From Lytechinus pictus (lineage: Eukaryota), in contig NC_087250.1 in assembly GCF_037042905.1 (NCBI RefSeq), positions 13,828,001 to 13,892,000 on the forward strand: DNA of 64,000 bases. Reading direction: 5' to 3'. Below the pieces are notes generated by a model. That model was not told the origin of the DNA. It ran no database searches and saw only the letters and a list, made by a program, of their open reading frames with translations. The stretch's first letter is position 1. Each line of letters begins with the position of its first letter. The position numbers and the translations under genes are program-made. Shown here one piece after another: positions 9,716 to 60,140 of this stretch.

Positions 9716-10860
<1,145 letters not shown>

Positions 10861-15865: not shown

Positions 15866-17526
15866 CACTGTTGGTCATAAAGGTGGAATATTTGTTTTTC
15901 ACCAAATTTTCACAGCGTAATTATTACAACATGATTTGAATATGGCATTTATGGTGCATGATAACCACTTTACTTTATTATTCTGCCTTTTACACACGTT
16001 TGACAGTGATATTTTACAAGTTTATGTCTTAAGCAATGGATGTCATGAGCATAGAACAACAATGACGACAATATACAGTAAATTAAAGGATCATGATATA
16101 TTTATTTTCAATCTCTCTCAGTTTTCCATATGAGTTTTTGTGTGATTTCATGGACAAATTTGCATCAAACTTGAGTCATTGTTCTTACTCAGTCACTAGT
16201 ATCGGGTATGTCCACCCCTGGCATGAACCAGCGCATGCAGACGTCGTGGCATGCTGTCCACTAGCTTGTTGATGACGTCAACAGGCATAGCGTCCCATTC
16301 TTCCCTCAGAGCATCTGCCAACTCCTGCAGATTTTGAGGAATGACCTCTCTGTCGTTGATGGCTCGGCCTAGGGCATCCCATGCATGCTCTATGGGGTTC
16401 ATATCTGGCGAACAAGCTGGCCATGGCAACTGTACGACGCCCTCTGCCTCCAGGAATTCCCTTACTGCAGCGGCCCTGTGCGGTCTAGCGTTGTCATCCT
16501 GCAGTCGGAAATTGTGCCCATACACTCGTCTTGCAAATGGAAGACAGTGGAACTCCAAGATATCCCTGTAGGCGGCGGCGTTGAGGTTTCCGTCCGGAAC
16601 CACCAGTGGCGTTTTCCCTCCATAATGGATGCCGGCCCATATCATCACTGAGCCGCCTCCGCCTTGAGTCGTCTCGTGGATACATTCATCGTGAAGGTTT
16701 TCCCCGGCTAATCGACGAACTCGTTGTCTCCCATCCTTTCGGTCAAGTATGAACCAGCTCTCGTCCATGAAGACCACATGTTGCCAATGTCCTGGATGAA
16801 GCCTTCTGTGCTCCCTAGCCCAAAGAAGACGAGCTACTCTGTGGCGAACAGACAGGCGTGGACATTTGTTCAACCGTCGTGCTCGGTAACCATGTTGGAG
16901 CAATCTGCGATTAACGGTTGACCGGGAAACCTTGATCCCATGATGTCTCCTCCACAAGCAACGAAGACGGCTCGTGGGCAATTTCCGGTTTCTGCGGCTG
17001 AAATTCAACAGTTGGCGATCATCTCTTCTTGTGGTCAATCTGGGACGTCCTGGAGATTTCCGTGGCCGCACATTCCATGCCTCACGTTGACGTTTCAGGA
17101 TCTTAGAGACTGCATCCTGTGATATCTCTAGGACTTCTGCGATATCAGTCTGCTTGTAGCCCTCCTATCGCAGTGCTACCACTCTCTCGCGTGTTGCTGT
17201 TGCCGTTGGACCAGGCATAGTCCAGGGAACGTCTCTACCGATTTTTATTTCAAACGGTACAAAAAACTCGAAAAAATGCAACCTTCTTATACACAGTGCT
17301 AAATCAGGGGAAGGGACAGAATATCATATGCATAGGTTTTTATAGTCTTCAACAAAAGAATTTATTACAAAATCCAAATTTCTTATGTTATAATGTCACC
17401 TGTGTAACGGGGAAACATTATGTAATCACTCAATTACCATTTTGTCTACGCGTAGCCTTTCAAATACCAACATTACTGTCGATTTTTGTTCAAAAATATT
17501 TTATTCCACCTTTATGACCAACAGTG
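15866..17526 (-). mobile_element. Tc1-family DNA transposon, full length
   Basis: 25-bp perfect TIRs CACTGTTGGTCATAAAGGTGGAATA, TA duplications at 15864-65 and 17527-28, internal transposase. Confidence 0.96.
16196..17218 (-). pseudogene. Tc1 DD34E transposase (340 codons) with one premature TAG at codon 18
   Basis: ATG at 17218, HTH-like N-terminus, GRPR motif, VFMDESWF / QDDNARPH / SPDMNPIE with 34 residues between D and E; in-frame TAG at 17165-17167. Confidence 0.92.
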
Positions 17527-31892: not shown

Positions 31893-33224
31893 TATGTATA
31901 TATATATATATATATATATGTATATTCTATTCGTAAAGTTATATATACAAAATTATCCATATTATAACTATATAAGTGAAATAAATTAGTTATATATGAA
32001 ATAATGAAATATGTTTTCCATCAATGAAAGAAGATAGTAATTGAAGAAAAGTCAAAGAAAATGTCCCTTTACATTATAGTTTCGATATTTTTCAAAGAGA
32101 ATATATTATATTTTATAGGCCTACTGGTATATAAACGAAATCGAAAGAATAGAGTTTGATAAGAAATGGAAATGAATTTTATTGGCGTAGATATGTAATC
32201 AGTGATAGGCCTACTTGGGGGGGGGGGGGGGCTCTTATTTCAGTTACATGAATGGCCAGGGGAAAAAATGAAAGGTAGATTTTTCTTTAAAAATGTATAT
32301 CAGTGGCGCAATAATTACAGAACGCAGAATGAAAGATACATATATCAACCGGATGGAGGGAAACATTATTAAAAAATAAATCATAAACCAAAGTGATGAG
32401 AGAAATTCACTTCGAGTTTTAGCAACACGATGCAAATATTTGTCAACTTAAATTTATTTATTTCCAAAACTAAAAAAACAGTTCATAAAATCGTAATTTT
32501 ATATCAAAGTTTCAAATAATCTGTGAATGTAATTAAGCTATAGAAATGTACTTATACAGTGTGCTATTAACCCAATAATGTGCTCTACAAAATAAACCGA
32601 AACTGAACTGAATTGAACTGAAATCCGAGTATTTGAATAGTCAATAAATTGGAAGAGATAGCGGAAATGTGACTTTAAACTTAAAGCAAATTTGCAAAAA
32701 TAGTCCAATATGACTGATTGCCGATACCATACACAGAAAAAAAAAGACGAACCCGTTTACGCAGTGTGGAAGACGAAGAAGAACCAAGGCTACTCAAGAA
32801 TGGAATTAACAAGGGAAATGGCGGTCTTTGTGTGACATTGTTAGCACTGTTGGTTATTTTGAAACCTCGAGATCATGTATTTTAACTGTCGTGGCGTTAG
32901 GAAACAGGATAGACCCCTATCTTGAACTTTCCAACCAAGGGTCCAAGCCAAGGCCAGTGCAGTTGCAGTGCAGCGCAGGTCAACGACTGCACGCAAGTGC
33001 TATTGACGGTATTGTATTCGCTTTACCATTGACTGGACCTGTGACTGTGTGGAGGAAATTAATGAGATTGAGAGGAAAGATCGCCCCGCGCCTCGCCTAT
33101 CCTACCGCCCGAGGCATTCTGTTGGTCTAACTTTGGGTCTAGACTATAATTACTAGATCTAGCCCTGACGTTAGACTAATTCTGCTTCATTGTCACAAAT
33201 TGTAGTGGACTCATTCTTAGGCAT

Positions 33225-33507
33225 ATGAATGGTAATAAAATGGCTGAAAATGGATCAGAAACCTCAGACATCAGTCAGACTTCAGATCAAATTAAGGAAG
33301 ATCAAGATGAGGAAAAACAAGATCAAGAAGAAGAAGAAGAAGAAGATGAAGTCCTCCCTGAAAAGGTGACGTCACCAGCAGGAGGGGAATCAGATAATTC
33401 TATCCTGCCTCGACGGTCCAGTCTTATCAAGGATTCAGCTAAGAAAAAGCCACGTAAAAAGACGGTTTCATTCTCGAGTTTTCCTGAAGAAAGGCCAATT
33501 TCAAAAG
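33225..33507 (+). CDS. PLCL2: Inactive phospholipase C-like protein (PRIP/PLCL1-2 type), exon 1
   Basis: PRRSSLIKD...RKKTVSFSS matches the N-terminal PP1-binding region of vertebrate PLCL1/2; donor AAAG|GTAAAT, phase 1. Likely co-ortholog of PLCL1 and PLCL2. Confidence 0.85.
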
Positions 33508-33977
33508 GTAAATGAAAATTTAAATTACCGGTAGGCCTAGATCTAGATTATATTAAGTCTTAACGTGTCGTTAGGCCTAGATCTAGGCTAATTTTATTTT
33601 GTCACCATCATTATCCATAAACGAAGACTGTTGAAAAGCGATTAACATTAGTTGCGCTTGCCAATTACAATGGCATACCAGATTTCTTTGGCAGAACTTG
33701 CATGCAACGGGCCGGGATGGCGGGTGAATTTTTGGATTGTTAAATGTTTTTTTTAGAAAGATCTATTATTGTTGGAAGTTTGTTTTGTCAGTTCAGTTTT
33801 GAATTGTTTCTGCACTATTTACATTCTGCAGTGGCCAGTGTACATGTAACTGTAAGAAACGTTTAACATACCAGGTACCGTTAGTGTGTTATCATTAAAA
33901 TGGGCCTACCGGTACATGTATATTACAAGACTACACTGCACAGAATGTTGCATTATGGGTTAGGAACATGGTCTGCA

Positions 33978-34122
33978 GGGCCCGTTGCAGAAAGAGTTGC
34001 AATCAATCGCAACTCTAAAAATCTTGCGCAACTTGATTTTCAACCAATCAACAGCGCGCATTTGGGACTTGCGATTGATTTTTTGAATTGCGTTTAAATG
34101 CAACTCTTTCTGCAACAAACCC
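33978..34122. mobile_element. Small MITE; second copy at 40244-40389
   Basis: GGGCCCGTTGCAGAAAGAGTTGC ... GCAACTCTTTCTGCAAC; the two copies are closely similar. Confidence 0.75.
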
Positions 34123-34839
34123 CAGATATGTGGTTGACGACATGAGAAGAGAAGCAATCTTTAATATTGGAAAGAGTAAAATGAGAGGAAAAATTTAAAA
34201 CTGTTTCATCAAAATCTGTTATGAATATGAAATAAGCAAATTTGAAAACTCTTGTTGTAGTTTCTATGGGGATCCTCAAATTGGCAAACATGCTTCAAAA
34301 TGGCTGATTTTGTGGACAACTCTCCATTTGTTTTGTACACAAATTTTCAGATTTTCCTCATCTTTCAAATTGCATCTTGCCTCCTGCTGAGCACATCATT
34401 TGTCATTGGAAAATATGATTCACACCACATATGTCAAGGTCAGGGGAAGAGAATGTGAAATGTGTAAAATAAAGGGGAAAATCTGAAAATTTGTGTACAA
34501 AACAAATGGAGAGCTGTCCGCAATATCAGCCATTTTGAAGCACGTTTGCCAATTTGAAGATCCCCGTAAAAAGTACAACAAATGAACAAGACTTTTTAAA
34601 CGTTCATAACTTGCTTATTTCAATTTTCTTAACCGATTTTGATGAAACTTTTTTTTAATTCTCGCTACCCCAAATAGGAACAAAAATCTCATAATGCGCG
34701 AGACGAGATAATTTTCACTCCGTCGGGTCGTCATCACCACTTCCGGTTCAGAGTCATGCTCGCGCGAGGTTCGCGATACTGAGTTTTCCACCACGCTGAA
34801 ATCGATGCCAATTAGCGTAATATGTACAGATTATAATAC

Positions 34840-37314: not shown

Positions 37315-38152
37315 CAGGTAACAATCAATTTTAAATGTTGAAGAGGAGGGGGGGGGGGGGGATGACCAATACTGTTTGTAGTCTTTCATTGACTGTGTGT
37401 TATAAATAGCTAGTCTTATTCAAGCAGCCATCTCCATGCCTACCCAAATCTGACCAGGGCCCCGTCTTACAAAGAGTTACAATTGATCCAATCAATCGTA
37501 ACCCATGGAAATCCATCAGTGTCATAATTTTGTATAAAGGAAATTTGCAAAATGTCCTTTGTAAACAAAGGAGAACACACCAAATTGTCAAGTAATCAAT
37601 GAATTTATGGATATACATTCATATGTAGAAAATTATTTGAGCAAACATGTATTTCATATGTTGACTTTGCTGGCTTTCCATAGTTGCAATTGATCGGATC
37701 AATCGTAACTCTTTGTAAGACAGGGCCCAGGTAACAGACAATTTAAAATGTTGAAGAGGAGGGGGGGGGGGGGGATGACCAATACTGTTTACAAGTAGTC
37801 TTTCATTGACTGTGTGTTATAAATACATGTAGCTAGTCTTATTCAAGCAGCCATCTTTAAGTCCATGACTACCCAAATCAGACCAGGGCCCCGTCTTACA
37901 TAGAGTTACGATTAATCCAATCAATCGTAACTCTATGGAAATCCATCAGTGTCATAATTTTTTCTATAGAAAATTTGCACAATATTCTTTGTAAACAAGG
38001 AGAAACAGTGAATTTTCAAGAAAACAATGAATGCATGAATAGTTAGAAAATATTTTGAACAACCATGAATAATACATGTTGACGTTGTTGCCCGTCCATA
38101 GTTGCGATTGATCGGATCAATCGTAACTCTTTGTATTAAAGACGGGGCCCGT
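37315..38152. repeat. Local tandem duplication (~415 bp), each unit ending in a GGGCCC-terminated MITE
   Basis: CCAGGTAACA...GATGACCAATACTGTTT...GACCAG-GGCCCCGTCTTAC present twice. Confidence 0.85.
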
Positions 38153-40642
38153 GTTGCTAAACCCATACATCCTGAGCAGTGTATTTAGGTCCAAATTCAC
38201 TGTTCAATACATTTATACCACAATGTTACCAAGTACATATATACAAGTACTTTTCCTCTCAATACAATTAAGTTTCTCTATAAAATTGTAGGATAATTTA
38301 TCATGTAATTTGTATTGATATATTGTACATGTATAATGTACACTGTATTTCAAGACTACACTGTAGCTATTCATAGCACACAGTGAATGAGAGGCAACAG
38401 ACAGTTCCATCGGTCCCTAAAACAGAGAATTAGCCTATAACTTTATTCGTACAAATGCTGTTTAAGATATGAGTACTTGTTAAACTCACTGTGCAACTGG
38501 ATTACACTCAACAGTGTTGTGTCATCCTTTCTGGGATCATTTACCAAAAAGGCTGTTTTAGCATTGTTATAACGAAATTAAAATTTCATTCAGTATTGAA
38601 AATTATTCGTACAAACTACAAAATGTCAAAAGTATTTTCATTTTCTTGATTTCTATATTATTACTATGATTTGGTTATTTGTTTTACAGTTTGCATCTAG
38701 TTAAATAGCACCGACAATATAATATAATATCATTATAATTATTATTTTTTTTTTTTTTATTTTTTTTTTTTTGGGGGGGTGATGTTACAATGTATGTAAA
38801 TCAAATCATCAAATTTCATATTTGTTTTGTTTTGTTTAATTTACGATTTTGTTAATTGTTATGAAAAGAAATGTTCTTTTACAATGTATTTCTTTGATTA
38901 TTTTTTTTTTAATGTTAATTTTTCTTTGATTGTAATCATTTATGTTTGGATTTGAAAATCAATAGAATATTTATTTTACAACTTACAAGATTTGAATAAT
39001 TAAAAAATTATAGTGTAAATTCATTGTACAAAATGCAAAAAAACATAGAATGGCAAGGCATACATGTAGCATATAAAATATCAATAAACATTGATTAAAA
39101 AAAATGAGGCAGTAAGAGAAATTAGGCATAGCTTGCCAGCTGTATTTGCTTTGAGATTGTGTGTACAATGTAGCATTTTTTTCTTGACATAGCAATTTAC
39201 ATGTAGTCCATAACAGCAGAACAAAAACATTTTCCCTCTTTTATCGTATGGAAGCAGCTTAGAAAATACATTATATGGGGACAGCAGACGGTTTGCCCCC
39301 AAATCACCCCTATGATTCCCAAAATGGCTTGCTTTGGGGGTCCATCTTGTTTTAGAGTCACCCCAAGATATGCCAAAAAACAATATTAAAGAACAAAGTT
39401 TAGAAAATCATTGATATTACAGGTATATGGCAGTAACCAGTAATGATTATATTTTTATTAACCCCATACTGTAATGTAATTAACCGTCTATAAGTTTGAG
39501 CATGAACTCACAATTGTTTTTTATCGGCTAATGATCTAAAAAAAATAAATGAGCTCCTTTTTTAAATGATTTTATATTCCCTTTACCACTTAAACATTAC
39601 ATTTTGATTTTCTTATTTCAGGCCTACATTTCGGTAATAAATTTTTGATTTATTACACAATTTCCTTGATTGATATACTGATCTACTTTCTATTGCTGTA
39701 TAATTTATTTCTACATTGCTGTATTATTGTTGGTCTTCCTTGATCTGTGTATAATGTGAAAACAGGGCATGTACATCCCTGTAAATATTTTGCTTGATCT
39801 ATTAGCTGCAATGATGCTGTGATATACATTTACTGTACATGTACATGTAGCTGCCAAATATTCCTATATTTGGAGCATTCCAATGTACAGCTATGGGAAA
39901 AGAAGATTATTATTCTATCCTGTTCCTATATTTTGTGAAAATGATATTTTGTACTTTTGTATTGAATAGGAAATTCAAAAATGATCCTATTTCATGGATT
40001 TTTGTAGTATTTAGTTCCCATTACTTGGCTGTTAGGGTTGGCAGTATATACATGTATATGCTGTTACATACAATAAACAGATGCATGTTTTCCATGCGTT
40101 GTTAGTAAACCTATATTGCTGTCATTAATTTCAATATTCCACATGTACTAAGAATCTTGCTATACAGTAGGATTGATCAGAAGTAAAGTCACATGATAAA
40201 GGGTAGTTTCCCCCATCAAACATCACTCGCATTGATGGATCTGGGGCCCGTTGCAGAAAAAGTTGCAATCAAACGCAACTCTAAAAATCATGTGCAACTT
40301 GATTTTCATCCAATCAACAGCGCGCATTTGGGACTTGCGATTGATTTTTTGACTTTCGTTTAAACGCAACTCTTTCTGCAACGGACCCCTGTTGTATTTT
40401 GCTGATCTTTTCAGCTTGTAACACATTGTGAATTAGTTTGAGTATGATCAAAATTATTAAAAGAGGTCATTGCCCCTCAATGTTTGTCCATCACCTCACC
40501 AACAGTGATTACTTGCTTTATCCCGTTTTCCTTCATCTATTGGCAATTTAATTCATTGATACACATTTGTTTTTATATTCCCGGTAATGAATTAATAGTC
40601 AGAAAACTGAGCACTTGCATGTATAAACATCTGTTTTATTAA

Positions 40643-41581
40643 GGACGTTCCACAGTTAAAATGAAATCCATGTCATTTTCACCAAACTTTGCACATAGAT
40701 ACTTTAGAAACTGAATATTCGAAATATGCAAAAATTAACATAGGTCCATGTGCTTGATTTTTTGCTATAGAGCTTCAAAGTTCACCCAACTGGATGTTCT
40801 TACGAATTGCGCATTCTAAAGAATTTGGCATTTTTAAACCTCGCAAGGTCACTACAATGAGTTTAAACCTCTATTACTCAGTCAAAAATACATGAAAAAG
40901 TAATCAAATTTCGCAAGAGAGTTAATAATTGTATCGTTAGAATGGAGAATCTATTTATAGTGCTATTCGTTTGCAATTTTAAGTCTAACAGCACTGTCAG
41001 TTCTTAAAAATGGCGTAAAACATAACAAAAACCCATTCTGAAACATGTGAAATTTCAATAACAAACTACAAAAGTACAATAAATGCTGCACTTTATTCAA
41101 AATCCATGTCATTTTCACCAAAATTTGCATAGTTGTAGAGGAAGGTATACCTAAGAGGTGCAAACGGTAAAAAATAGGGCTTCATGTGCTTGTTTTCAAA
41201 CTATCAGCATTTTCATTAGAGCAAATGTGCTTTTTAAAACACCAGAAATGCGCCAAATGCTTTGTATCTATGTGAAGAAAAAAATTAAAACCACTCTACC
41301 ATTTATTCAAACTCGGGGTCATATTCGTGATTTTTGGCAGCACTGCAGAGGAAAGTATTTTGAAATTGTAGAGATGTTTTTTAAAATGGTCCATGGAATA
41401 ATTAAATTTCTTTAGCTTCATAAAAAGAATGCATCGGATCTGCAGTTAGAGTGCAGATGATGAGAAAAATCTGTTCATACCCACAGCTAATTAATCACCT
41501 GTTCATCCATTGTGACGTCAGCGCGCAGAGTGTAAAATATGCGCAGATCATAATGCGCACAAACATAACTGTGGAACGTCC
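40643..41581. mobile_element. TTAA-flanked MITE
   Basis: TTAA|GGACGTTCCACAGTTA ... TAACTGTGGAACGTCC|TTAA. Confidence 0.85.
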
Positions 41582-41679
41582 TTAAATGCTTTATAGATCT
41601 ATATTATTAGTTAATATTCATATTTATAATTATTATATTTCCCACATTTAATTCATGTTTGTACATTTGTATCTTACAG

Positions 41680-41829
41680 CATCTGATTGTCTGTCAATAA
41701 TGGAAGCTGGAAGTGAATTAGTGAAAGTAAGATCTCCCTCGAGACAATACAATCGTTTCTTTGCTCTAAGTGAAGACAGGTCCGAGCTTCGATGGCATTC
41801 ATCTTCAAAGAAACCAGAAAAAGCAAGAA
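41680..41829 (+). CDS. PLCL2: PLCL exon 2 (PH domain N-half)
   Basis: TTACAG| ASDCLSIMEAGSELVKVRSPSRQYNRFFALSEDRSELRWHSSSKKPEKAR |GTAAGT; phase 1-1; PLC PH-domain signature. Confidence 0.92.
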
Positions 41830-42164
41830 GTAAGTCATGTCTTCTGTATTAAAAACATACGGTTTTGATGAGACTCCATTATTTTTCAAAAGGTCCCCAC
41901 CATCAAAAAATGGCAGCTTTCGAATTTGTAATGTTTTCGTGTATTTATTTATTTATTTATTTCTTTATGTATTTATTTACTTATTTATTCATTCATTTAT
42001 TTATTTGTTTGTTTGTTTATTAATTAATTAATTAATTAATTAATTTATTTATTTTATTAATTATTTATTTATTTTTTTTTTTTTTTGGGGGGGGGACCAA
42101 AACAGTTTTTATTAAAAATAAACTACTCTCCCCAAGTCTAATTATAATTACTAATATTAAAATT

Positions 42165-42421
42165 GATAGGTTTATTAAGCACTTTTTGCCTGAGGATACC
42201 AAGCGTTGCTATTATTACCCTGGCTTTAGCTGTGCTCTTATTTATGCATTAAAGCATACAAGGAATTTCTTCCCACCGGGTACCCATTCACCTCACCTGG
42301 GTTGAGTGCAGCACAATGTAGGTAAGTTTCTTGCTGAAAGAAAACACGCTCTGGCTGGGATATGAACCCACGTCCCTCAGATTGAAAGACGAGAGTCATA
42401 AGCCACCTGACCACGACGCCC
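42165..42421 (-). mobile_element. tRNA-derived SINE
   Basis: Minus strand tRNA-like head with A-box/B-box-like motifs (TGGTCAGGTGG; GGTTCATATCC) followed by a non-tRNA body; second copy at 49470-49598. Confidence 0.75.
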
Positions 42422-42545
42422 TCATATTATCAGTATTATCATTTTGATTTTCATTATTATTACGATTATTTTCATATTTATTATCATCATCACTATTAAA
42501 ATCAAATTAATCTAATGAATTTATTTTATTCTGTCTTCATTTCAG

Positions 42546-42752
42546 TTTCTGTTGAGAGTATAAAGGAAGTACGACTGGGGAAGACGACCGAGATGTTCAG
42601 GTCTCAAAACATGGCCATGGATTTCCCTGAAGATTGCGCGTTTTCTGTGATATTTGGTGAATCTTACGAGACTCTGGATCTGGTAGCTGCCACACCAGAC
42701 GAAGCCAATATATGGGTGACTGGTTTGTCTTATCTTATAGGAGGAAACACAA
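42546..42752 (+). CDS. PLCL2: PLCL exon 3 (PH domain C-half)
   Basis: TTTCAG| ISVESIKEVRLGKTTEMFRS...EDCAFSVIFGESYETLDLVAATPDEANIWVTGLSYLI |GTAAGT; phase 1-1. Confidence 0.93.
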
Positions 42753-43094
42753 GTAAGTATCTGCTATTGAGTCACTATCATAAAATGGTGATTTGGATCC
42801 TTATCAAATGATATATGCTGAACCAGCCATTTATTTTAGCTACATGTATAAACAGTATACAAATAGGGAATAGGCATGAGTTTGATGGTACAAGGTTGAA
42901 TAGAGTGTCTCTTTCTTTCACCGAATGCGAAAGGTTGCACCATTGCACAATAAGAATACATTCGCTATATGTTTTGTACAATGTCTTGGAAAATCAAACA
43001 ATAGTTGATTTTTTTTTCCAAGTTTTGTCTATGAAAATGAGAAAAAATTATTCAAAGCAAAATGCAAAATCCCACATATATGTACGCGCATCTG

Positions 43095-44022
43095 GGGCCC
43101 GTCTTACAAAGAGTTGCAATTGATCCGATCAATCGCAACTATGGACGGCCAGGAACATCAACATCTATTAAGCAATGTTTGTTCAAAAAATTACTATGAT
43201 TTCTATTCATGCATTCATTGTTTTCTTGAAAACTCACTGTGCCTCTCTGTGTTTACCAAGGACATTGTGCAAATTTCCTGTAGAAAAAATTATGACACTG
43301 ATGGATTTCCATAGAGTTAAGATTGATTGGATCAATCGTAACTCTTTGTAAAGGCGACCGCACACCTTACGACTGGTCTGCGACCCGATTTTGGAACAAA
43401 TCGCATTTTGCTCATTTTTTGAAGATGTGAATGGAACATATCATTTTATTTGAGGTTAAGATTAATTGAAATAATAATATTATAACCATTTTGAAAGATT
43501 GCAAGCCCTTATTTTGGAGTAAAGTCCAAATTAGTTTCAAATCGTAGCCAATCGTACGACTGCTATGACGTCATTACGACTAGATATCAAATTTGCTTTT
43601 ATTCTAAGAAGGATGATAGCATAGTCACAAATTTGATCATAGGTATTCGTACGATGATTTAGAACATTACACAGTAAGATATTCCAAGTCTTAATATTAG
43701 CATCAAATACTACTACATTTTATTCTGAAATCGGGTCGCAGACCAGTCGTAAGGTGTGCGGTCGCCTTAAGATGGGGCCCAGGGGCCCGTCTTACAAAGA
43801 GTTGCGATTGATCCGATCAATAGCAACTATGGACGGCCAGCAAAGTAAATGCATGCTTGTTAAAAAAAAATTCTAGATATGAATGTATATCCATAAATCA
43901 ATTGATTTCTTGACAATTTGTTGTGTTCTCCTTTGTTTACAAAGGACATTTTTCAAATTTTATTTAGAAAAAATTATGACATTGATGGATTTCCATAGAG
44001 TAACTCTTTGTAAGATGGGGCC
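43095..44022. mobile_element. Two stacked CWG-target Harbinger-like MITEs; the first contains a TAA-TSD MITE (43352-43767)
   Basis: CTG|GGGCCCGTCTTACAAAGAG...|CAG|GGGCCCGTCTTAC...|CAG; inner TIR AGGCGACCGCACACCTTACGACTGGTCTGCGACCCGATT. Confidence 0.8.
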
Positions 44023-44606
44023 CAGATCTGCAACAATTTTAATACCAAGCATGGTTTAGTATACATTATGACGTCAGGACGGTGCAACGGTACAATCTTT
44101 ATGGTACATGTACCTGTGCAACGGTGTGAATGTCTGATGCTCAGCCTCTCATTGGCTTGTGTATGTTCAACAAGCTTGGTACAGGCATTTATAAAAAAAA
44201 TTTACCAATGACTGACCTGTAATTATTGACCAGTCATTGGGTTTGAGGTTAGGGCGGGGTGTCAAATAACACTGATCCACTGATACACATAATTTTTCTT
44301 TGGCAATAATTTTTACTCTTTACCTTTGAAAATGTCCAAACGTTTGGTGGTGTTAAAAGTGTGCCAAAAGTACCTTGTGCATGTAATTCTCACTAATGAT
44401 TTACACTATTGTTAATTGATCAGTTGTGTGTTCTTTCCAAACCTATTTTGAAATACATGTAGAATCCTTACATTGTGATTTGGAAGCACTGCTGGTAGCT
44501 AGTTGTCCAAGTTCTTAATACTGACTTTCCATATTTCCAACTGATTGAAATTAAGTATTGCATTTTTAAATAAATTTCCTCCTTATTTCACTTTCATTCA
44601 TTTCAG

Positions 44607-44646
44607 CACCAGAAGCTATAGAAAGGAATCAAGAATTACGAGATTC
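44607..44646 (+). CDS. PLCL2: PLCL exon 4 (40-bp exon followed by a U12 donor)
   Basis: TTTCAG| (T)PEAIERNQELRD(S) |ATATCCTTTT; the phases bridge exon 3 and the exon at 48020 exactly. Confidence 0.85.
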
Positions 44647-44926
44647 ATATCCTTTTCATTTTCATCATTGTTTCATGTAGGTGTATTTGTATCACATATT
44701 ATTGACATACAGTGTTTATTTATATTCAGTCCAGATTTTCTGCCTTTAGGGACGGAGGGGGCGGGGGCGGGGGCGGGGGAGGGGTGGGAGCTTGTGGTTC
44801 CATTTGTGGTGCTGCTCTTGAATAGATGATTGATTTGATTATCAGAGTGATGATTAAGATGTGAAAAATGACATTAATTTTCTTGACTGTATGCAGATTC
44901 TTTCATAATGGTGAGAGATACATCAG

Positions 44927-45243
44927 GGGCCTGTTTCATTAGGAGTTACAACTTGTAACTTTGCCATTATGGCAACTACCATGGCAACAGGTCTCAGCAG
45001 CCAATCATAATCACAGTTACCATGTTAGTTGCCATAATGAATGGCAAATTTACAACAGTTGCAACTCATTGTGAAACAGGCCCCAGGGCTCCGTAACACA
45101 AAGGTTTACGATGGATTGCAAATATGAAAGAACCGTACTCATTGGCTCCCAGTCAGTATTTTAAACATAGTGCGCATGCAATGATGATCTTGATTGGTCA
45201 TTGGTATTTAGCGATTAATTGCAAACCTTTGTGTTACGGAGCC
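44927..45243. mobile_element. Two different small MITEs sharing CAG TSDs
   Basis: CAG|GGGCCTGTTTCA..TGAAACAGGCCC|CAG|GGCTCCGTAACACAAAGG..CCTTTGTGTTACGGAGCC|CAG. Confidence 0.8.
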
Positions 45244-46442
45244 CAGGTGTGTTTTTGAAGCGCCCCCTGCCCTAGTCTGGTGTGTGAACCCTTCGCTCCA
45301 GTTAGGAGTCTGAATGTGCAGCCTACTCATGCCTTGTGTACTGATGGCTCTCTCGCTCAATTGAAACAGCAATTTTCAAATGTGCTAGTCTTTGTGTGGA
45401 AACCCACTTGTTGATCAAATTTTTAATCAGGGTCTGTGCCTGCCCCACCTTATAGGACACTCGCTCATTGCTGGCAATGGTGTTGACACCAACACCATCA
45501 CTATTTATAGCAACACCGTGCTGCTATAAACTATTATTTATTACTTTATAGCAGCACAGTGTTGCTATAAAGTATTAAATAGTGATGGTGTTGGGTGTTT
45601 GTGGTGGTGTTTCTGTTAATAGAGAGGGCTATCATTGGTGTTTCTGTTAATAGTGTTAATAGTGATGGTGTTGGTGTCAGTGTTTGTGTTTAAAAGACAT
45701 GATCACAGTTTGACAGCCGAATGACCAAGTTTGGCATTAATAATGATTGTGATTATTTTCTTGCATGATTGACATCTATGTGTTTGATGATGCACCCTTG
45801 ATGAGAAGGTCAATTAATCTCACATGTTGGGAAATATGTTTTTTAAGCCCTCTGTACCCCATATTTTGCTGCCTAATTGGATTATTAATATGGTGATAAT
45901 GTTGTTGTGAATAATGATAATCATGCCTTTAATTTGGTATCTCACATTGATCCCCACCTTTCATTACATGTACACATGAATGTACATACATGTAGATTAT
46001 CATTATGACATACCATGCCTGGCAACTGTCAATGTTTAAATAGGGACAGTCCCAAATTTTTGTAGAAAGAGAGAGAGAGAGTCACTTAAACCACAGTGTA
46101 CGTGTCCTGGTGAAAAATCTGTAGACCTGAACTATATCAATAGGAACCCCCGGCAAAAGTCCTGATTTTCAGCCATTGTCTTCCCGTATGCCCCATTTTC
46201 TCAAGTTTCAGGGTTGGCAGGTACATGTATGTTATGGTGATAATGATATTGATTTCCTTTATGATTTCATTATTTAATCATGGTTGATGTTAGATAAATC
46301 AGTGGGTAATGTATGGTGATGAAGATGATGATTCTTTAATCAATTACATGTACATGTATCTCACTTGGTTGGAATGTATATGCATGTTTAATACAGGTAC
46401 AGGTGATCATGGTCATGATGTTGATTTCCTTGACTCGATTAA

Positions 46443-46951
46443 AGGGGAAGTTCACCCTGACAAAAACTTTGTAAAAATAACAGAAAAAATAATGAAAAAT
46501 ATTGGTAAAGGTTTGAGGAAAATGCATAAATGATGAAAGAGAGATATTAGAATTTCAAGTTTTTTATTTGTGATGTCATAAACAACCAGAGCTCTGCCCC
46601 ATATGTTACATGTACAGTACGTAATATAAAATGCATAAATTTCATTTTTTTAATGGTTCGTAATGACTTATTTTTTATTTTCTTTTAAGGAGCGGGTGGG
46701 AAATTATTTTTCTATTGATATACTGAATGTACAATTCAAACCATTTTCAATTTTCAGAGAAAATGGCATTTCATTGATTTTTTACCATTCGATATGTAAG
46801 CTGCTCGCATATGACGTCACAAATTGAATAATTAAAATGTTAATAACTTTTTTATTCTTTGATGGATTTTCCTCAAACCTCGCCAATATTTTTAAATTAT
46901 TTTTTCTGCTATTTTTGAAATAAACTTTCTCAGTCAGGGTGAACTTCCTCT
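46443..46951. mobile_element. Kolobok-like TTAA MITE
   Basis: TTAA|AGGGGAAGTTCACCCTGAC ... GTCAGGGTGAACTTCCTCT|TTAA. Confidence 0.85.
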
Positions 46952-47186
46952 TTAAACTCACATGGTTGAGAAATGTTTAATAATGCACCCTTGATGAGAT
47001 GATGATAATGATGATGATATTAATTTCCTTGACTTTAGTTACCAATCTCACATGGTTGAGATATGTTTAATAATGCACCCTTGATAAGATGATGATGATA
47101 GTGATGTTGATATTGGTGGTGGTGGTGATGATGTTATTGTTGTTGATGATGATGGTATTAGTTTACTTGACTTTTTTAATAGTTAA

Positions 47187-47757
47187 AGTGATCATTTCAC
47201 TTTGTTCTGATTTAAAAAATTCTCCTTTTGGTTCCTGAAAATGGGCTAAACATTAGGCTTATAGTGTAAAAATACCATCCCAAAAGTTTCAAAGTATTAT
47301 ATTTACAGGATCAATTTAAAAACCTAGGAGATGTAAACCAAAGTTTGAAATAATTGGGAGTTGGTTTCAATGACTATATGTATACAGGGATTCTGTGCAC
47401 CACAACACATTAATTCTAGATGAAAACAGCATTACCTACATACAGTGTGTACAAGGTATACACTGAATATACAGTGCAGCTAATAGTGTGTGTATAGGAG
47501 ATACACACAACAGAATGCAGTCAAAATAGCCAACGGACTTTTTGAATTGGAGAAAACTGGTCATAAGCTGAACCCGTCTACTAGACGGTTCTCAAAATCA
47601 GGCTAATAAATTGCTACTTGTATCTAAATTAGAGTTTTTCATCCTATATTGTGGTCTGTTTCAGGGTTTTTGAGGACAAATACAGGCACTCATACGCACG
47701 TTTCAACTCAGTTTGAGAAATTTTTAAATCAGCTGCTCACAAAGTTAAACGATCCCT
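47187..47757. mobile_element. Kolobok-like TTAA MITE (different family; relatives at ~18600-19150 and 61221-61601)
   Basis: TTAA|AGTGATCATTTCACTTTG ... CAAAGTTAAACGATCCCT|TTAA. Confidence 0.8.
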
Positions 47758-48019
47758 TTAAATCTCACATGGTTGGGAGATATGTTTAACAAAGCAGCTG
47801 GTGATTTGATGATATTGATATGAATGTGATGATGATGATAATGTTGGTGATATTGATTTCTTTGACTTCAGGAGTTAAATCTCACATGGTTGAGAGATAC
47901 ATGTATGTTCAACAAAGCAGCGGGTGATTTGATGATATTGATATGAATGTGATGATGATTATGTTGATGATGATGATAATGATGATTATATTAATTTCCT
48001 TGACTCAATTAAATCTCAC

Positions 48020-48149
48020 ATGGTTGAGAGATATGTTTAACAAAGCAGCTGGTGATTCATTAGGTCAGTTGGATGAATGTGAAGTTATGCAGCTCATGAA
48101 GAAACTTAACAATGGTGTCGCCTCAACTCGGATTAGACACAAGTTTAGG
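48020..48149 (+). CDS. PLCL2: PLCL exon 5 (first EF-hand-like region); no further exon recognised in the window
   Basis: WLRDMFNKAAGDSLGQLDECEVMQLMKKLNNGVASTRIRHKFR |GTAAGT; matches the PLC EF-hand start (W...F...). Confidence 0.88.
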
Positions 48150-49469
48150 GTAAGTCCTTATCTTATCAATGATATAATATTGCCAAGTAGTACTGATTTT
48201 CAGTTATCAGTACTGAAATTGAAACAAAATATTGCTTGTTTCATTAAAAATAATGATTTCTGAAGTTTTTTAATTCATGTGTTTTGTGGTATTTATTTGA
48301 AAATACTGATTTCCTCACCAAAATACTGATATTCAGCTTTTGAAATACTGAAATGTTCTTGTGCAGTTTGGCATCTCTGCAATATCCCCTATTCACAGTT
48401 GTTACTGCACATGAGCAGTAAAAGGTCATTCAAGGTAAACAAAATGGTCTTCAAATTCACTGATGCATCCATGATTGGATGATTATTCATGTAGGCCTAT
48501 ACTATGCTTTTCACACTGTAGTACAGAACGTTCATGAGGTAAAGCTTAGCCCACTTTGGTTTCACACTAGGTTTTTAAAGTGGACTAGCAATATATTGGT
48601 ACGGTACTATCTGTCTTGCCCTGCTAAAAAGCAGGGTTAGCCGGCTTATTGCGGTGCTAAGAACCGCAGTGTGAAACCAAACCGGGCTTAGGAAAAGTGG
48701 GGCTAAGCATTAGCCAATTACAGAAGTGGAAATTGCATGTTAATCATGCTCTGTGTTGCAAAATCATCAATATTCATGAGCTGTGCGACAGTCAGGGGTT
48801 AAGTGCTCGGATGTGTGATACAGGTATATTTTTAGCCCGGAGCATCCCTTTATTAAAAAGTGATCATACAGATATCATACAATGTCCCTGCACTGATACG
48901 GTATGCTCTATCATGGGATCAAATTGAATTCCAGTCTAGTGTAGAAAGCCTGGTAAAATAGAACTTATACATGTAGTTTTGGGGGCCATGAGGCCGTTCT
49001 CATTATGCTTTCTAAAACTAGTTTACTGGAATCCGATTCAAAAAACCAATTTGGAAGATCGCTTTGCTAGCGTTCCCACTTGATCATACGAAAGTGGTTT
49101 TCAAAATCATTTCACGATCTTGTTGCTTGTTGCTAACTCCCAATGCACCGCATGTACCATGTACAGATATACTTGAAATATCAGTGGTTAGTGAAATCTT
49201 GTGTCATACAGTCAGACCAGTATTCAACGTTAGTACCAGTATATTTCAGCATGGGTTTGCATTGGAAATTTTATACCTCTTGAAATTAAAGGGAAACATA
49301 TCCCCAAGCTCAATCTCGTAATTGGTCTAGGCTTTATAACAGATTCCAGGTCAAGGTCTCTGTCTATATCTTGGGCACATTTCAATATGCACAAATGATG
49401 AACAAATAAAAAGGGACATCTTTAATACGTACATTCAAGATGCGGATGGAAAATATGCAGGGGCGTGGG

Positions 49470-49598
49470 TTGACCTGGGTCAAGTGCAGCACAATTTAAG
49501 TAAATTCCTTGCTGGAGGAAAATACGCCATGGCTGGGATGCGAACCCACGTCCCTTGATTGAAAGACAAGAGTCATAACCACTAGACCACAACGCCCC
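49470..49598 (-). mobile_element. tRNA-derived SINE, partial
   Basis: GGGGCGTTGTGGTCTAGTGGTTATGACTCTTGTCTTTCAATCAAGGGACGTGGGTTCGCATCCC, then the same body as the 42.2-kb copy. Confidence 0.75.
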
Positions 49599-50728
49599 CA
49601 CACAACATTGACTGAAGTGATTTCATCCCATAGATTTGAACAAAACAACAGACTCGCAGTAGTAGATGAGAATTTGACATACATAGGATTTTAAATTCAA
49701 TGTACATGTACATTGTATGCAGCAGGCTTCACTACTCAGCATCCCACAATGTACTTTGAAGTCCCCATTTCATGTAGGCCCATAATATGTAGGAATGGGC
49801 AATTAAAAGCCAGTATAATGTACCTGCTCATATATTTTGCATACTATGCCAATTATTTCTATCGCAGAATTTACATGTATGTTTCAGGGGCAAATAAAAG
49901 TATGATTTCATTTGTTTTTAGGGAAGCGGCTTTTATTCAATGAACATAATTGGACACAGGTACATGTACGGCTTTTATACAGATTGGCCCAAAATTTAGT
50001 TTGTGCCACACAAATAGCGGATTAGGGTCCTGGGGTCAGAAAATTGCAATTTTGGGGTATTTTCAATTTGTAAGCTGTTCTGTTGATTTTGTGTGATTGT
50101 TTACATTTTCAATAGGGTCACGGCAAGGTAGAATATGTATTAGGACGACAGGCGATTTTGCCCTCATGAATGCCAAAATCACCCCTAAAATTAAAAAGAA
50201 AGAATGTTTTTGGGGACCATCTTTTCTAGGAGGAATTAATCATTGTATCACTTGACAATGAGGAGAAAATAAGAATATTTCATGTTTCATATAATAAAAT
50301 ACAAGAGAAATAGTGAGTGGATGACGTCATCAGCTTCCTCATTTGCATACCGATCAGGATGTGCATACATGTATATAACTGTTTTGTGAAATTAAGCGAA
50401 ATTTTAAAATGTCATAACTTTTTTATTTTACATCTGATTTCGACGAAATTTTCAGTGTTATGCTTGTTGGATTTTTCTCTTTTTTATTCAAATCAACTTT
50501 CTGTTGAGGTGGACTTGTCCTTTAAGGTAGATTCCATATTTCTATATATTTGAGGAAACTCTCCAAACGGGTTGAATACTAGTGCCCTTACGGTATTTTT
50601 ATTAAACTGTCTTGAACTTGAATATGAAGCAAACAACTGTACTATGTACGGGGAAAATGCTATCCACAATGTTTGTGTATTGGTAAATTGAATGGAGTTC
50701 AACCTTGCCTTTAATCATGAATGTAATA

Positions 50729-50924
50729 GTCTGCAGGCACAGACCTTTGGTTTTCATGCAATATGCATAGTGCATAATTTAGAGTCTGAAGTAGTGAGAC
50801 TAGATTCACTATGTACTGTGGCTGGCTCTGCAGATACACTACAGACAAAGCCATTGGCGTCTAGTCTTCACTCTAGACCTATTATTGGTTTAAAGAGTCA
50901 AATATGAGTCTGTGCCTGTAGACT
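50729..50924. mobile_element. MITE family GTCTGCAGGCACAGAC; other copies/fragments at ~62689-63173, 63206-63330, 54945-54995
   Basis: Terminal inverted GTCTGCAGGCACAGAC / GTCTGTGCCTGTAGAC flanked by TA. Confidence 0.7.
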
Positions 50925-53900
50925 AGACCCTACTAGGATCCACGCATTAATATCCTAGCCTGAAGGTATAAGACCTATTGAAACCAATTAATTCAATGTC
51001 CTTTATCTCCTGGCCGCCAATTTATTCCCAATGAGATGCTATTGGTTGGAGGTCTTAACAAGTCGTACGCGATACATGTATGTCTCGTGTTCAGGAAATT
51101 CAAAGCTTAACAGTTGTAGGCTGTAGCAAATGATGATTTGATGAAAAAGTCTTTAAAATTGTCACCGATTCAAAAGTCATCATGTCGAAGTTCAATTAAT
51201 TTTGTTGTCTTTCCATTTTTAATGCACAACATGTACATGTACATGTACACCTGTTATCAAATTGGTCTTTTGGAATGTACAAGACATTTTTATGCCATGT
51301 AATATTAGTCCATTGATTCTTGCCATTACAAGTTTGTTTGTTGGAACTTTGAAGAGCTTATTATTTTTAATAAGCTGTTATTTTTAAACTTTATCCATAT
51401 CTACATGCATATTTGTTGTCATTAAGCAAAATTTGTTGTTACTCAAAATTTGTATTTCTTCCATGCCCCTGAAGGGACCGTTCTAGAAATAAAATCACTC
51501 TACTGTACCATATATAGATCTAGATCCTGTAAATTTGTTTACTGTCTACAAGTATAACCTAACTATGTGAAATCATAAAATCTATTATCTGGAAAACAAA
51601 CTTTGAAATCATATGACATCTATGAAAGCTTAAAAAAAAGATCACATTGAAGATCGCCAACACATGTTCTTCTTGTCCTTGTCCTTTCAATAGAAACAAT
51701 ATACACTGTATGTCTAATTCACATCCACAATAATACGCTGTACATGTACGTGTACCTTTGAATTCATCCATTGCATCTCTTCCTTTTCTTCGTGATCTTC
51801 CAACGTGTGGTATTAGAATAGGGATGATCGTAATTTTGTTTTTTTAAAAAGCCCGACATGTACAAGTACATACAAAGCAAAACATGTTTGAGTGTACAGG
51901 TACATGTCTAGCGGTACTCATTATATTTGCAAGATGGAGAATGAAGATGAAAACATAGCTTTTGATGTAGTTTTCCTTCAAATGGCATGTCCCTGACCTT
52001 TTAGAATGGTGTGTGTGTGATAGATGTATGTCAGAATACCTAGGTTTATAATGTAAGAAACCTTCAGATGATCAGTAGATTGCAATGGATGAGGAGCCCT
52101 TGGCAAACTATGTTTGGTTGCAGTTCTGCAGGTACATTATGGACAACACAGAATGATAATGAATTAAAGATGTAGCTGTCAAAGTTGTAGTACATTGTAC
52201 ATAGTATGCCTTCATCGTGTCTGTTCATCAGTTAAAGGTTGTAAGGAACTCTCGTACGAAGCCCCGGAGCAGAACAAGTTTGTGTGCAGATTCTCTCTCT
52301 CAGAATGTTTTACAGAGTGATTATATGATATGTACAGTACAGGACATTGATCTTGATGTTAGTTCCTTTTACAGGTATAGAATGTCCTTGAATAGAGAGT
52401 GTAACACAGCACTGGCGGATCCAGGGGGGGGGGGGGGGAGCTGGCCCATGCCCCCCTTTGAGAGGCACAATTAAAATTTGCAATGTAAATATGCAGTTAG
52501 AGCAGAAATGTGCCCCCTTATTTTTTTCTTTTTTTTTTGCTTGTCAATTTTTTTTCGTGAACGGAATGTCCTCATTTTGGGTTGAAAACTTTTGTTTTTT
52601 GCTTGTTAATTTTTCCTTGGGGAAAATGTGCCCCCCCCCCTTTTTGGAAAATCCTGGATCCGCCCCCGGTACATGTAAACAAAAATTGAATGAATGTTTG
52701 ACAAGAGAGAACGTTCTAAGGAATACATTGTTTATGTACATGTACAGTATGTATTTCCACAAAATAATAAATGTTATCGAAGAGAAGCCCTTTTTTATAA
52801 AGACATGTTTGGTTGCAGGTAGTGTATTATTATTATTATTCATTTGGCCATTAAAAAACATACAAAAATTGTACAATGTAATTACAAAAACACTATTTGA
52901 TATTAAATAATTAAATATGGATATGTAAAAATGAAAGAAAAGAAGAAAAGAGTAAGAAAATTGTTTTTCCATGGGCCAGGGCTCGCAAAAGTAAAATTCA
53001 GTACTATCGCCCAGAGGCATGCGATGCGAGCCCCCATGGAAAAATCATTGAGAGTATTGCACATTCCGGTATATAAGATTACACATTAAAATTCAAATAA
53101 AACACATTCAACAGTTATTATTAAGAAGTATAAGAAATATGGAAAAAACATTGAAATTTTTGCACATTCCGGTATATAAAATTACACATTAAAATTCAAA
53201 TAAAACACATTCAACAGTTATTATTATTAAAGAAGTATGTAACGCCAGGCAAGATAAAAGAAATAAAGAGGGGTATTGGGAAGAATTTGAATACCCATGC
53301 CGGGTGTACATGTAAAGAAGGCACAGAAGAATAGTTTGACCATGGACCCTGGTATGATGTACAATACGCAGCTCTCAATAATTTTGTCTATTTGTTTTAT
53401 CATGTCCTTGGCATGCAAGAATTGTATGAGGGTCTGATCGTATGTTTGTCATAGTGGCTGGCTTCTGGGAATACATCCTTCAAAATAGTATTGTAATTTG
53501 AAAAAAAAAGGAGCCCTTATAAAAACATGTCGGGGTGCTGGTACTCGTAACACACAGAATAGTGAGGAGTGAGAAAGCACATTTCGGCATGTTTATAATG
53601 TACTGTACTGGAGTAAAACCAATGAACTTCATAGAATACCAGGCTTACATACTGTACATGTATGTACTATTACATGTACATGTACATGATATATACTTTC
53701 ATTTTATATTCATTTTGTATTGTAATAATTATGTATGCATATTCAATTTGTACATGTACTGTATATACCTACTGTATAGATTAGTCTGCTGTGCAAACCA
53801 TTCACTTGAGCTATTAAGGGTCTGAATGCAAAGCCTATAATGACTCATGTGCTGAAGGCCTATAAAGGGACGCACCATTAGAATACCCAGGGGGGGGGGG

Positions 53901-54161
53901 GGCTGGAAGTTTGGGTTGATGCCATTTTTTCCCCTTTCTTCTTTGAGTAAAGTTTTTTTCCTTGTCCATTGAGACGATTTTTGGGGGTCTTTTTTGCACC
54001 TTTCAGATTTATCAGTGGACCAAGATTTTTTTTAATACTCTGATGGTGAGTCAAGTTTCTTTCTTTTTTTTGCTCATATACTGTATTAAAGTCAAGTTTG
54101 TTTTTTTTGTGTGAAAATCTTCCACCCCCCCTGGATCTCATGGAATATGGTGCATCCATTG

Positions 54162-54911
54162 CAGGGTTGGGCTCAATTACAAGGTAATTGATCAATTACG
54201 TAATTAATTACATTTTTTTTGTAATTGTAATTGTATTTGAAATTTTGAAAGGGAAAGTAATTGTAATTGTAATTGAATAATATAATTGACTTCAATTCCT
54301 GTCAATTACTTTTGATTACATTTAATCATTAAATTTACTATAAACTTATTTTAATATTAGATATAATTGAATGACCTTTTTCATGTCAACTGCGTCAGCA
54401 TCAAAGAGTGTAATAGGCAGAATCCCTGCTCTTTATAAACTCGTATCTTGTCAGTTTCTCTGTATTAAACTTAAATTTATGTTGAAATAGTTGGTGCTTG
54501 TACTTGTACAGAATACAAAGCGATTTGATAAATGACTGTTATAGAAAGTATTTTAAATTGTCATTGACAAAAGTAATTGGTAATTGTATTGTCAATTGTA
54601 ATTGAAAAAATGTAATTTGATTGATAAGTAATTGCAATTGAACATGAATTTCTTCAATTACATAATTGTACTAAATAGGTTCATTATTGCGGATTGAAAT
54701 AATCGCTAGAGGGTATTCATTTGTCTCGCAATCTACTATGGTCAACAAGGAAATTCGTGATCACTCTCTCAAAAAGTGTTCACTGGCTTTCTAGGAAATT
54801 CGTGATCACTCTCGCAAAAAGTGTTCACTAGCTTACAAGTTCACGAGCTTTCGAGTGCCGCTCTAGCGATTACATAATTGTAATTGAAGAAAGTAATTGA
54901 GCCCAACCCTG
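54162..54911. mobile_element. hAT-like MITE (GTAATT-rich)
   Basis: TIR CAGGGTTGGGCTC / GAGCCCAACCCTG; same family as 59617-60081. Confidence 0.8.
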
Positions 54912-55672: not shown

Positions 55673-56067
55673 GGTTAATTGCCAATCTGTCTACTGCCAA
55701 CTCGACCACTCACCACATAGCCTACTCTCATTAGTCTAATGCCATTCTGTCCATCAACATTTTGTCTAACAACCATTTGGTCCAATCATCACTTCGTCTA
55801 ATCACCAGTTCGTCTATGACCATTTCGTCTAATAACCAGTTGGTCTAATACCCATTTTCTTTTTGTTTGCACAATTAACTTTTTAGTTTAATTAGACCAA
55901 ATGGACTATTAATGGTCATTGGACCAACTGGTTATTAGACAGAATAGCATTAGACTATAAAAATGAAAGTAGACCATGTGGTGAGTGGACGAACTGATGG
56001 TAGACCAAATGGTATTAGACGAGTTGGCAATTGGACGAATTGGCATTAGACGAATTGGAAATGTACC
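55673..56067. mobile_element. GG-terminated MITE with 8-bp TSD (Merlin-like), inside a CT-rich tract
   Basis: GTCTAA/TTAGAC-rich inverted arms; TSD GTTCTCTC/TTTCTCTC. Confidence 0.65.
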
Positions 56068-60081: not shown

Positions 60082-60140
60082 TTGCCTCATTGTAAATAAT
60101 TACCCAGCATGGCTACCCAGATTCGGTGCTTGAGCATTCC

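Follow-up and report, generated by a model that had tools for sequence, protein, structure and literature searches.

The 64-kb stretch of the Lytechinus pictus genome analysed here (NC_087250.1, positions 13,828,001–13,892,000; this whole stretch is called the window) carries palindromic octamers of the form TA-NNNN-TA, chained in register through shared TA dinucleotides, near the first exon of a plus-strand gene (Table 1). These words come about by insertion at a TA, and what stands between the two TAs is drawn from a small, palindromic set of fillers; TA-flanked elements ending in CA..TG and in CC..GG are present in the genome. The palindromes are probably the excision footprints of cut-and-paste transposons of the IS630/Tc1/mariner type, which target TA. 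An earlier note, made from the letters of the window, had pointed to the octamers and chains around the exon, and all of them were recovered where it had placed them. Word statistics were based on 264 kb of unselected DNA (the window and 20 random 10-kb stretches), repeat copies were compared in 339 kb (the window, the random sample and 24 non-overlapping loci around TAGGCCTAGATCTA), and the genome assembly has 811.7 Mb.

Dispersed repeats offer many copies of one ancestral sequence, so that an insertion test is possible within a single genome. All-against-all comparison of the repeat copies in the 339 kb returned 28 insertions of 6 bp, of which 17 turned a TA into TA-N4-TA, and the lengths of the insertions rise at this value (18 of 5 bp, 28 of 6 bp and 21 of 7 bp). 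The N4 was palindromic in nine of the 17, against 1 in 16 by chance (TACCGGTA three times, TACATGTA and TAGGCCTA twice each, TAGATCTA and TAACGTTA once each), most of these cases coming from loci picked for the chain motif, though from elsewhere within those loci. A site with approximately 1215 intact copies, GACCTTCATCCA-TATA-ATCGTGGTA, was picked before its variants were known, and all 33 copies with at least 4 extra bp were examined. Exactly 6 bp had been gained in 11 of the 33, among them TACATGTA (three copies), TAGGCCTA (two) and TAGATCTA (one), all on different contigs, with the remaining five being AT-only and resembling tandem duplications; near forms were present in five further copies (TAGGCCTAA, TAGGCTA, TACGGTA, TACTGTA and TACAATGTA). 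A second repeat site, GACAGCCGAAG-TA-AGTCACTG, has 305 matches in the genome, and among the 100 matches listed 81 have the consensus, seven are substituted and 12 are length variants, including TACCGGTA, a mutated TACCGGTC, TATATGTACATGTA and TATA. A single repeat TA thereby occurs in three states, as the plain TA of those 81 copies, as TACCGGTA and as TATATGTACATGTA. Copies of this repeat at C1:8885595, C2:41262542 and C4:1829018 have a 3-bp gain in common, from GTAAGTC to GTAATTAGTC (TAATTA), which is either another small palindromic insertion, at TAA, or a subfamily marker.

The third site is the one that holds chain 3 of the window. Aligned with 12 other copies of its host repeat, the window copy has the 12-bp CCGGTACATGTA (CCGGTA followed by CATGTA) inserted at a TA. 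Among 69 genome matches to TGGGCC..TATTACAAGACTAC the consensus is TGGGCC-TA-TATTAC, CCGGTACATGTA is present in the window copy only, and the other variants include CATGTA alone at the same TA (one copy on C10) and TAAATTTACTG (one copy on C12). Loose contig ends at 33919, hundreds of them from four runs, read ...CAAGTGGGCC adjoining the TA, which is the same consensus. The earlier note had taken GGCCTACCGGTACATGTA, which lies at 33903–33920, as one chain beginning with GGCC; the repeat consensus itself holds GGCC, so that 33903–33906 is ordinary dispersed-repeat sequence by the alignment of copies and the chain proper is TA-CCGG-TA-CATG-TA. Plain TA is the consensus state at all three repeat sites tracked genome-wide. 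The inserted CATGTA, CCGGTA, GGCCTA and GATCTA adjoin unrelated sequence, and a copy of the inserted letters next to the insertion was found only for the AT-only gains of 6 bp. The comparisons of repeat copies thus agree with two proposals of the earlier note, that the octamers are NNNN+TA insertions at pre-existing TAs with CATG, CCGG, GGCC or GATC as filler, and that the same TA is reused, with copies showing one TA with different fillers or with two in a row.

Counts in the window are above those in 100 dinucleotide-preserving shuffles. TACATGTA occurs 49 times (shuffle mean, 1.86), TAGGCCTA six times (0.37) and TAGATCTA six times (0.95), numbers that none of the shuffles reached, and TACCGGTA occurs twice (0.28), which four of the 100 reached. 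In the random 200 kb, TACATGTA, TAGGCCTA and TACCGGTA stand at 7.6, 5.6 and 2.8 times the expectation from base composition, respectively, and the density of TACATGTA is clumped (0–16 per 10 kb). Units with GGCC, CCGG or GATC as filler occupy 11 separate places in the window, six of them inside 32110–33925, which is 2.8% of its length (~2e-7 by a binomial estimate from unit positions), and the stretch from 37.8 kb onwards has 40 of the 49 TACATGTA. The clustering of the former at the 5' end of the gene and the prevalence of TACATGTA downstream, as described in the earlier note, are thus both upheld.

The units are also stacked more often than chance would allow. The 171 units in the unselected 264 kb form 11 in-register pairs at an offset of 6 bp against 1.4 expected, an expectation that assumes that the flanking TA behaves as an average TA, and no pairs of units were found in this DNA at offsets of 4, 5 or 7–11 bp. 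Homo-chains such as TACATGTACATGTA make up six of the 11 pairs and, together with the many 6-bp insertions at AT-rich sites that are plain tandem duplications, are what would be expected if chains grew in the manner of microsatellites, by replication slippage or tandem duplication of a hexamer. This origin is extremely unlikely, as slippage cannot found CATGTA, CCGGTA, GGCCTA or GATCTA where no hexamer stood before, which is what is seen for the first units of chains, and hetero-chains are impossible under it. Over the whole genome, TAGGCCTAGATCTA was counted 1311 times and its reversed control 0 times; TACCGGTACATGTA, whose sites are singly scattered, was counted 341 times and its control 20 times. 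The count of TACCGGTACATGTA is approximately twice a rough estimate for independent re-use (~180, from sample densities), so that nothing special is needed to account for it.

The DNA around chains 1 and 2 is single-copy: when 33510–33960 was searched against the genome, no second copy of 33510–33880 (query positions 1–371) was returned, and there is consequently no paralogue that shows the ancestral state of either chain. Contigs from a related organism, mostly 90–99% alike, span both chains and differ by T>C at 33532 and C>A at 33576, and across 33502–33628, which is 127 letters long in the window, two such contigs of one run have 119 and 141 letters; the length of the region thus varies, and conservation of the units is not strict. 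A contig of run X11 matches TAGATCTA at 33154 exactly, and related-organism contigs keep this octamer, with two adjacent bases missing at 33152. The presence of this octamer and, with substitutions, of chains 1 and 2 in the related organism, along with the clustering within approximately 1 kb of the first exon, would suit palindromes that are selected as protein-binding sites of the promoter, for instance for dimeric transcription factors or insulator proteins. That the palindromes owe their existence to such selection is nevertheless highly unlikely, given that the same words are inserted in decaying repeat copies genome-wide, where selection is improbable, and that the related organism has base changes within the units and length differences across them; single sites may have been recruited for binding later.

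Chain 2 reads as a three-unit near-palindrome whose third unit is short by one base. It has one 15-mer in common with chain 1, 40 bp away, between unrelated flanks, and since genome-wide there is only one such word per 620 kb, its occurrence twice within 40 bp points to a local process, either repeated visits or copying during repair. The second of these would also be compatible with a TA-directed break and repair that involves no transposon, such as a staggered cut that is filled in with hairpin-derived or templated additions: the identical 15-mers could be templated repair copies, and source elements for GGCC and GATC were not found (see below). Additions derived from hairpins mirror the flank, however, whereas the filler here is independent of it, and the filler words are few, two of them matching the ends of TA-flanked elements in the genome; breakage and repair without a transposon is decidedly unlikely. 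Excision through flank hairpins by hAT, Transib/RAG and Mutator-type elements leaves P-nucleotide palindromes that mirror the flank, without a fixed TA frame. They are short palindromes at excision sites, as the present words probably are, but the filler here does not depend on the flank and always stands between two TAs. One proposal for the same region, that 33528–33912 is a 385-bp miniature inverted-repeat transposable element (MITE) with CCGGTAGGCC ends, was rejected, since part of its right arm is consensus sequence from another repeat, together with the inserted CCGGTA.

TACATGTA is reportedly the classical footprint of Tc1 and Tc3 in C. elegans, from the work of Plasterk in 1991 and of van Luenen et al. 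in 1994. If the octamers are excision footprints, an element would insert at a TA and duplicate it, and its excision would cut the 3' ends exactly at the junction and the 5' ends two bases inside. Each flank would then retain the TA with two terminal bases of the element, and end joining of the flanks would give TA-xy-y'x'-TA, a net gain of 6 bp with a middle that would be palindromic because the ends of the element are inverted repeats. Elements ending in CA..TG (Tc1-like) would leave TACATGTA and those ending in CC..GG would leave TACCGGTA; by the same logic, GG..CC elements would be needed for TAGGCCTA and GA..TC elements for TAGATCTA. The scar would present two TAs, and a later round of insertion and excision at either would add a hexamer in register, so that the return of the same family would produce a homo-chain and a visit by a different family a hetero-chain. 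The cut with a two-base stagger, the end-joining repair in the germ line and the existence, at present or in the past, of the GG..CC and GA..TC elements are what we infer from the scars.

As far as the relevant parts of one account go (PMC6943129), elements of the Tc1/mariner type insert only at TA, are cut a few bases inside their 5' ends and leave a footprint of the element's first or last 2–4 bases between TAs; the footprints described there, such as TACAGTA/TACTGTA of Sleeping Beauty, resemble the octamers in having a duplicated TA around terminal bases of the element and in arising by end joining after a staggered excision. For ISY100, a cut two bases inside the 5' ends and the matching rejoined junction are shown in part of PMC2170065, and an offset of this size predicts TA-xy-y'x'-TA exactly. 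Unlike the canonical Tc1/mariner scars, the form with two plus two bases prevails here for several terminal dinucleotides, the scars are fixed in the germ line and frequent enough to distort octamer counts, and they form in-register stacks that mix families, with elements found for two of the four classes. The footprints of Stowaway and other plant MITEs are likewise fixed scars of non-autonomous TA-targeting elements that are recognised by comparing related sequences, though in those studies (PMC1925063, PMC4423477) the scars are at sites known to have held an element, whereas here they emerge from word statistics and repeat copies. The mechanism is a known one, of which the present case is a new example in its scale and its hetero-chains; literature searches returned no paper on stacked footprints or over-represented TA-NNNN-TA octamers in sea urchins.

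When the 339 kb were scanned for inverted ends with a flanking 2-bp direct repeat, TA was the commonest flank (104 pairs, many redundant). The Tc1-like transposon of the window (Table 1) has an uninterrupted open reading frame of 322 residues (16199–17164, minus strand) with matches to Pfam DDE_3 (9.5e-15) and HTH_Tnp_Tc3_2 (1e-11), and judging from its sequence it may be a young copy; it would exemplify the CA..TG type, with TACATGTA as its expected scar. Six more, shorter, TA-flanked CA..TG elements were found (loci L037, L042, L044, L048 and L050, and window 37470–38133). A CC..GG family has 293 termini genome-wide, and of the 100 listed, 95 follow a TA, with varied outer flanks. A further TA is present six bases upstream of 28 of these 100 ends, against approximately eight expected, and in 12 of the 28 the result is a palindromic octamer (TAGATCTA in six, TAACGTTA in four, TACCGGTA in two), although the six ends that adjoin TAGATCTA may not be independent cases and the four with TAACGTTA, in which both flanks are identical, are probably one event copied inside a larger repeat. 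A CC..GG end beside a palindromic octamer would be an element caught next to an earlier scar, as a hetero-chain requires. The TA of GGGGGGGGG-TA-GGGGGGGG in locus L009 is occupied by a CC..GG element (780–1364), and the likeness of this site to window 32206–32233, where TAGGCCTA stands near a run of 16 G, may be a coincidence. Three other candidates were dropped: a GG..CC candidate in L041 (GGTGATAAATA...) and a GA..TC candidate in L026 (GACCTTCATCC...) lie between outer flanks that are conserved, which makes them inverted repeats inside larger repeats, and window 55972–57152 spans two direct copies of one repeat. The earlier note had read the octamers as footprints of several families and had named TA-flanked families with matching termini as their source; this is supported for the insertion process overall and for the CA..TG and CC..GG classes, whose elements were found, and so far unsupported for GG..CC and GA..TC, for which the 339 kb and three genome patterns yielded none.

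Several observations speak against excision footprints as the full explanation. Elements with GG..CC or GA..TC ends were not found in the 339 kb or with three genome patterns. GG-ended elements next to TAGATCTA were likewise not found, the pattern TAGATCTAGG followed by a non-C base being unenriched (1905 against 3118 for the control). Mariner transposase PF01359 had no match in the genome and equally none in control genomes, which gives no answer either way. The 7-mers expected from a 3-base stagger, TACAGTA and TACTGTA, have no clear enrichment. Filled, empty and scar alleles were not seen together at any one orthologous site. TAGATCTA is not enriched in the random 200 kb (three copies, where base composition predicts 7.1), and its copy at window position 5704 sits in a tandem repeat of 164–166 bp whose sister units read TGGATCTAG or TGGACCTAG, so that this octamer is a substitution variant and no scar. 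Lastly, TAGGCCTAGATCTA exceeds a rough estimate for independent re-use of TA approximately 23-fold (1311 against ~56) and is present in several repeat families, one of which has three occurrences in each copy, so that repeat amplification or some further preference, and not separate events, makes up much of the count. Part of the excess comes from the copying of repeats that bear the word, and the remainder is unexplained.

The repeat families with TAGGCCTAGATCTA give weight to the view that the chains are pieces of CTAG-rich dispersed families of transposable elements, spread by copying and not made on the spot. Among 30 TAGGCCTAGATCTA loci, mutual homology links L005 with L030, L009 with L031, and L011, L015, L016, L021 and L028 with one another; in one family TAGGCCTAGATCTA recurs at fixed spacing, repeats that contain it are full of the related words tagacc, tagact and ctaggcc, and the TAGATCTA at 5704 belongs to a tandem unit. 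Yet chains 1 and 2 have no other genome copy, the 68 further copies of the repeat that hosts chain 3 are without it, most TAGGCCTAGATCTA loci have unrelated flanks, the TACCGGTACATGTA sites are scattered singly, and how the words first entered the repeats is left unexplained. Spread by copying accounts for part of the TAGGCCTAGATCTA count and for the TAGATCTA at 5704 and not for chains 1–3, for which it is an unlikely origin.

The family of L016 and L021 (C1, 10.87 Mb and 12.87 Mb), L011, L015 and L028 is rich in CTAG words (tagatc, taggcc, tagacc, tagact), and its three TAGGCCTAGATCTA have fixed spacings of ~160 and 690–775 bp. With the pattern TAGATCTAGG plus non-C, a larger repeat came to light that has long inverted arms and contains TAGATCTA; on C1, for example at 7446300/7447065 and 9584873/9585621, an inward-facing pair of TAGATCTA approximately 750 bp apart has outward inverted arms of GGACTGGTTYTGTATACGGACT and is probably a repeat with long inverted ends. 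The tandem repeat around 5704 belongs to a tandem and dispersed repeat with a period of ~164 bp (window 5366–5875, 12064–12541, 25631–26071 and 35162–35735) that bears TTCATGAA, thus accounting for the 20 copies of that word, and that reads TAGATCTAG, TGGATCTAG, TGGACCTAG or TGGTCTAG at one position across its units.

The earlier note had further suggested that each family has its own chromatin preference and that the scars are a fossil record of promoter versus gene-body accessibility, a hypothesis for which CpG observed/expected in the 400 bp on each side of a site (one site per 200 bp) served as a proxy. At the random loci the ratio is 0.415 around TACATGTA (n = 45), 0.62 around the GGCC, CCGG and GATC octamers (n = 21) and 0.55 around random TAs (p = 0.0096 between the two octamer classes), and in the window it is 0.45 around TACATGTA and 0.61 around the other three (p = 0.022), both p-values being nominal as sites within one locus are not independent. 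The mean at 25 loci around TAGGCCTAGATCTA is 0.66. Where animal genomes are methylated in a mosaic pattern, CpG depletion is a sign of germ-line methylation, typically of gene bodies, and the contrast therefore fits a family-specific chromatin preference in its direction, although this weak proxy measures CpG depletion and not promoter targeting. The base just outside TAGATCTA is G in 56% of flanks (n = 9 sites), compared with 15% for TAs in general, and one possibility is a preference for CTAG that the scar itself regenerates; a CTAG preference for all GC-type scars was considered and dropped, as it holds for GATC alone. Taken together, the scars could form a map of germ-line chromatin in which CA..TG elements land in methylated, CpG-depleted gene bodies and the GGCC, CCGG and GATC families in unmethylated promoters and first introns, with long-lived open spots at 5' ends being revisited by different families to give hetero-chains and with GATC scars recreating their preferred CTAG target, but in this combined form the proposal is doubtful. 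GATC scars could also multiply locally and seed CTAG-rich repeats.

The features of the window are given in Table 1. Exon 1 was delimited by contig fits and an open frame: a contig of 1129 letters from run X11 has no differences over 32885–33507 and diverges from the window at 33507, just before a GT, and the open frame begins with an ATG at 33225 or 33240, which together indicate the first exon of a plus-strand gene and contigs that would derive from spliced RNA. The leader extends to at least 32791, with two contigs covering 32791–32914. Bins of low or no cover at 33775–33916 (runs X1 and X5) were left out of the evidence. PLCL/PRIP genes feature a PH domain, an EF-hand, PI-PLC X and Y domains and a C2 domain, of which the PH_12 match in the downstream exon was the only one seen within the window. 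By its sequence this exon would fit a gene of the phospholipase C type on the plus strand, and the KKTVSF motif of exon 1 presumably resembles the PP1-binding site of PRIP. The catalytic exons are outside the window, for which reason the label PLCL given to the host gene is plausible and not proven.

Table 1. Octamers, chains, exons and elements located in the window (window positions).
Feature	Position	Strand	Remarks
Tc1-like transposon, TA-CACTGTTGGTC...GACCAACAGTG-TA	15866..17526	-	1661 bp; perfect 25-bp inverted ends
Single TAGGCCTA	32116..32123		Upstream of exon 1
Single TAGGCCTA	32206..32213		16-G run a few bases beyond
Exon 1	32791..33507	+	Contig fits and open frame; GT donor directly after 33507
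Single TAGATCTA	33154..33161		In transcribed leader of exon 1; context C-TAGATCTA-G (CTAG)
Chain 1, TA-CCGG-TA-GGCC-TA-GATC-TA (TACCGGTAGGCCTAGATCTA)	33526..33545		Intron 1, 19 bp in; unique DNA
Chain 2, TA-GGCC-TA-GATC-TA, then GGC-TA	33572..33590		TAGGCCTAGATCTA at 33572-33585
Single TACATGTA	33841..33848		Intron 1
Dispersed short repeat copy hosting chain 3	33881..34126	+	Source of GGCC at 33903-33906
Chain 3, TA-CCGG-TA-CATG-TA	33907..33920		12-bp insertion CCGGTACATGTA in dispersed repeat copy
Gene-body stretch	37824..62766		40/49 window TACATGTA; four TACATGTACATGTA doublets
Downstream exon, PH domain	42500..42808	+	Pfam PH_12, E 4e-13, 50.4 bits vs cut-off 27

Two other repetitive stretches were observed in the window. 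An array on the plus strand at 6300–9750 has a period of 84 bp (super-periods of 168, 270 and 456 bp) and a unit that resembles C2H2 zinc-finger codons with the linker ...ATCCATACAGGTGAGAAACC..., and it is the reason why TATCCATA has 42 copies, more than any other non-palindromic TA-N4-TA word of the window. In the gene body, 58077–58531 consists of approximately 150 copies of TGA (TGATGATGA...) with a purity of 76–78%.

Should the octamers be excision footprints, TACATGTA would mark approximately 200,000 past excisions in the genome (extrapolated from 54 sites in 200 kb), and the scars would far outnumber the elements that survive. They would then be a main source of 6-bp insertions and deletions and of small non-coding palindromes. 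For motif searches this carries a warning, as palindromic octamers that are enriched at promoters need not bind proteins. What deserves following is how dense the scars are, how different families stack in register and how the CpG context differs by class. As a cheap and annotation-free record, split by family, of the germ-line landing sites of cut-and-paste elements, the scars would be comparable with maps of methylation and accessibility from sea-urchin gametes and embryos.

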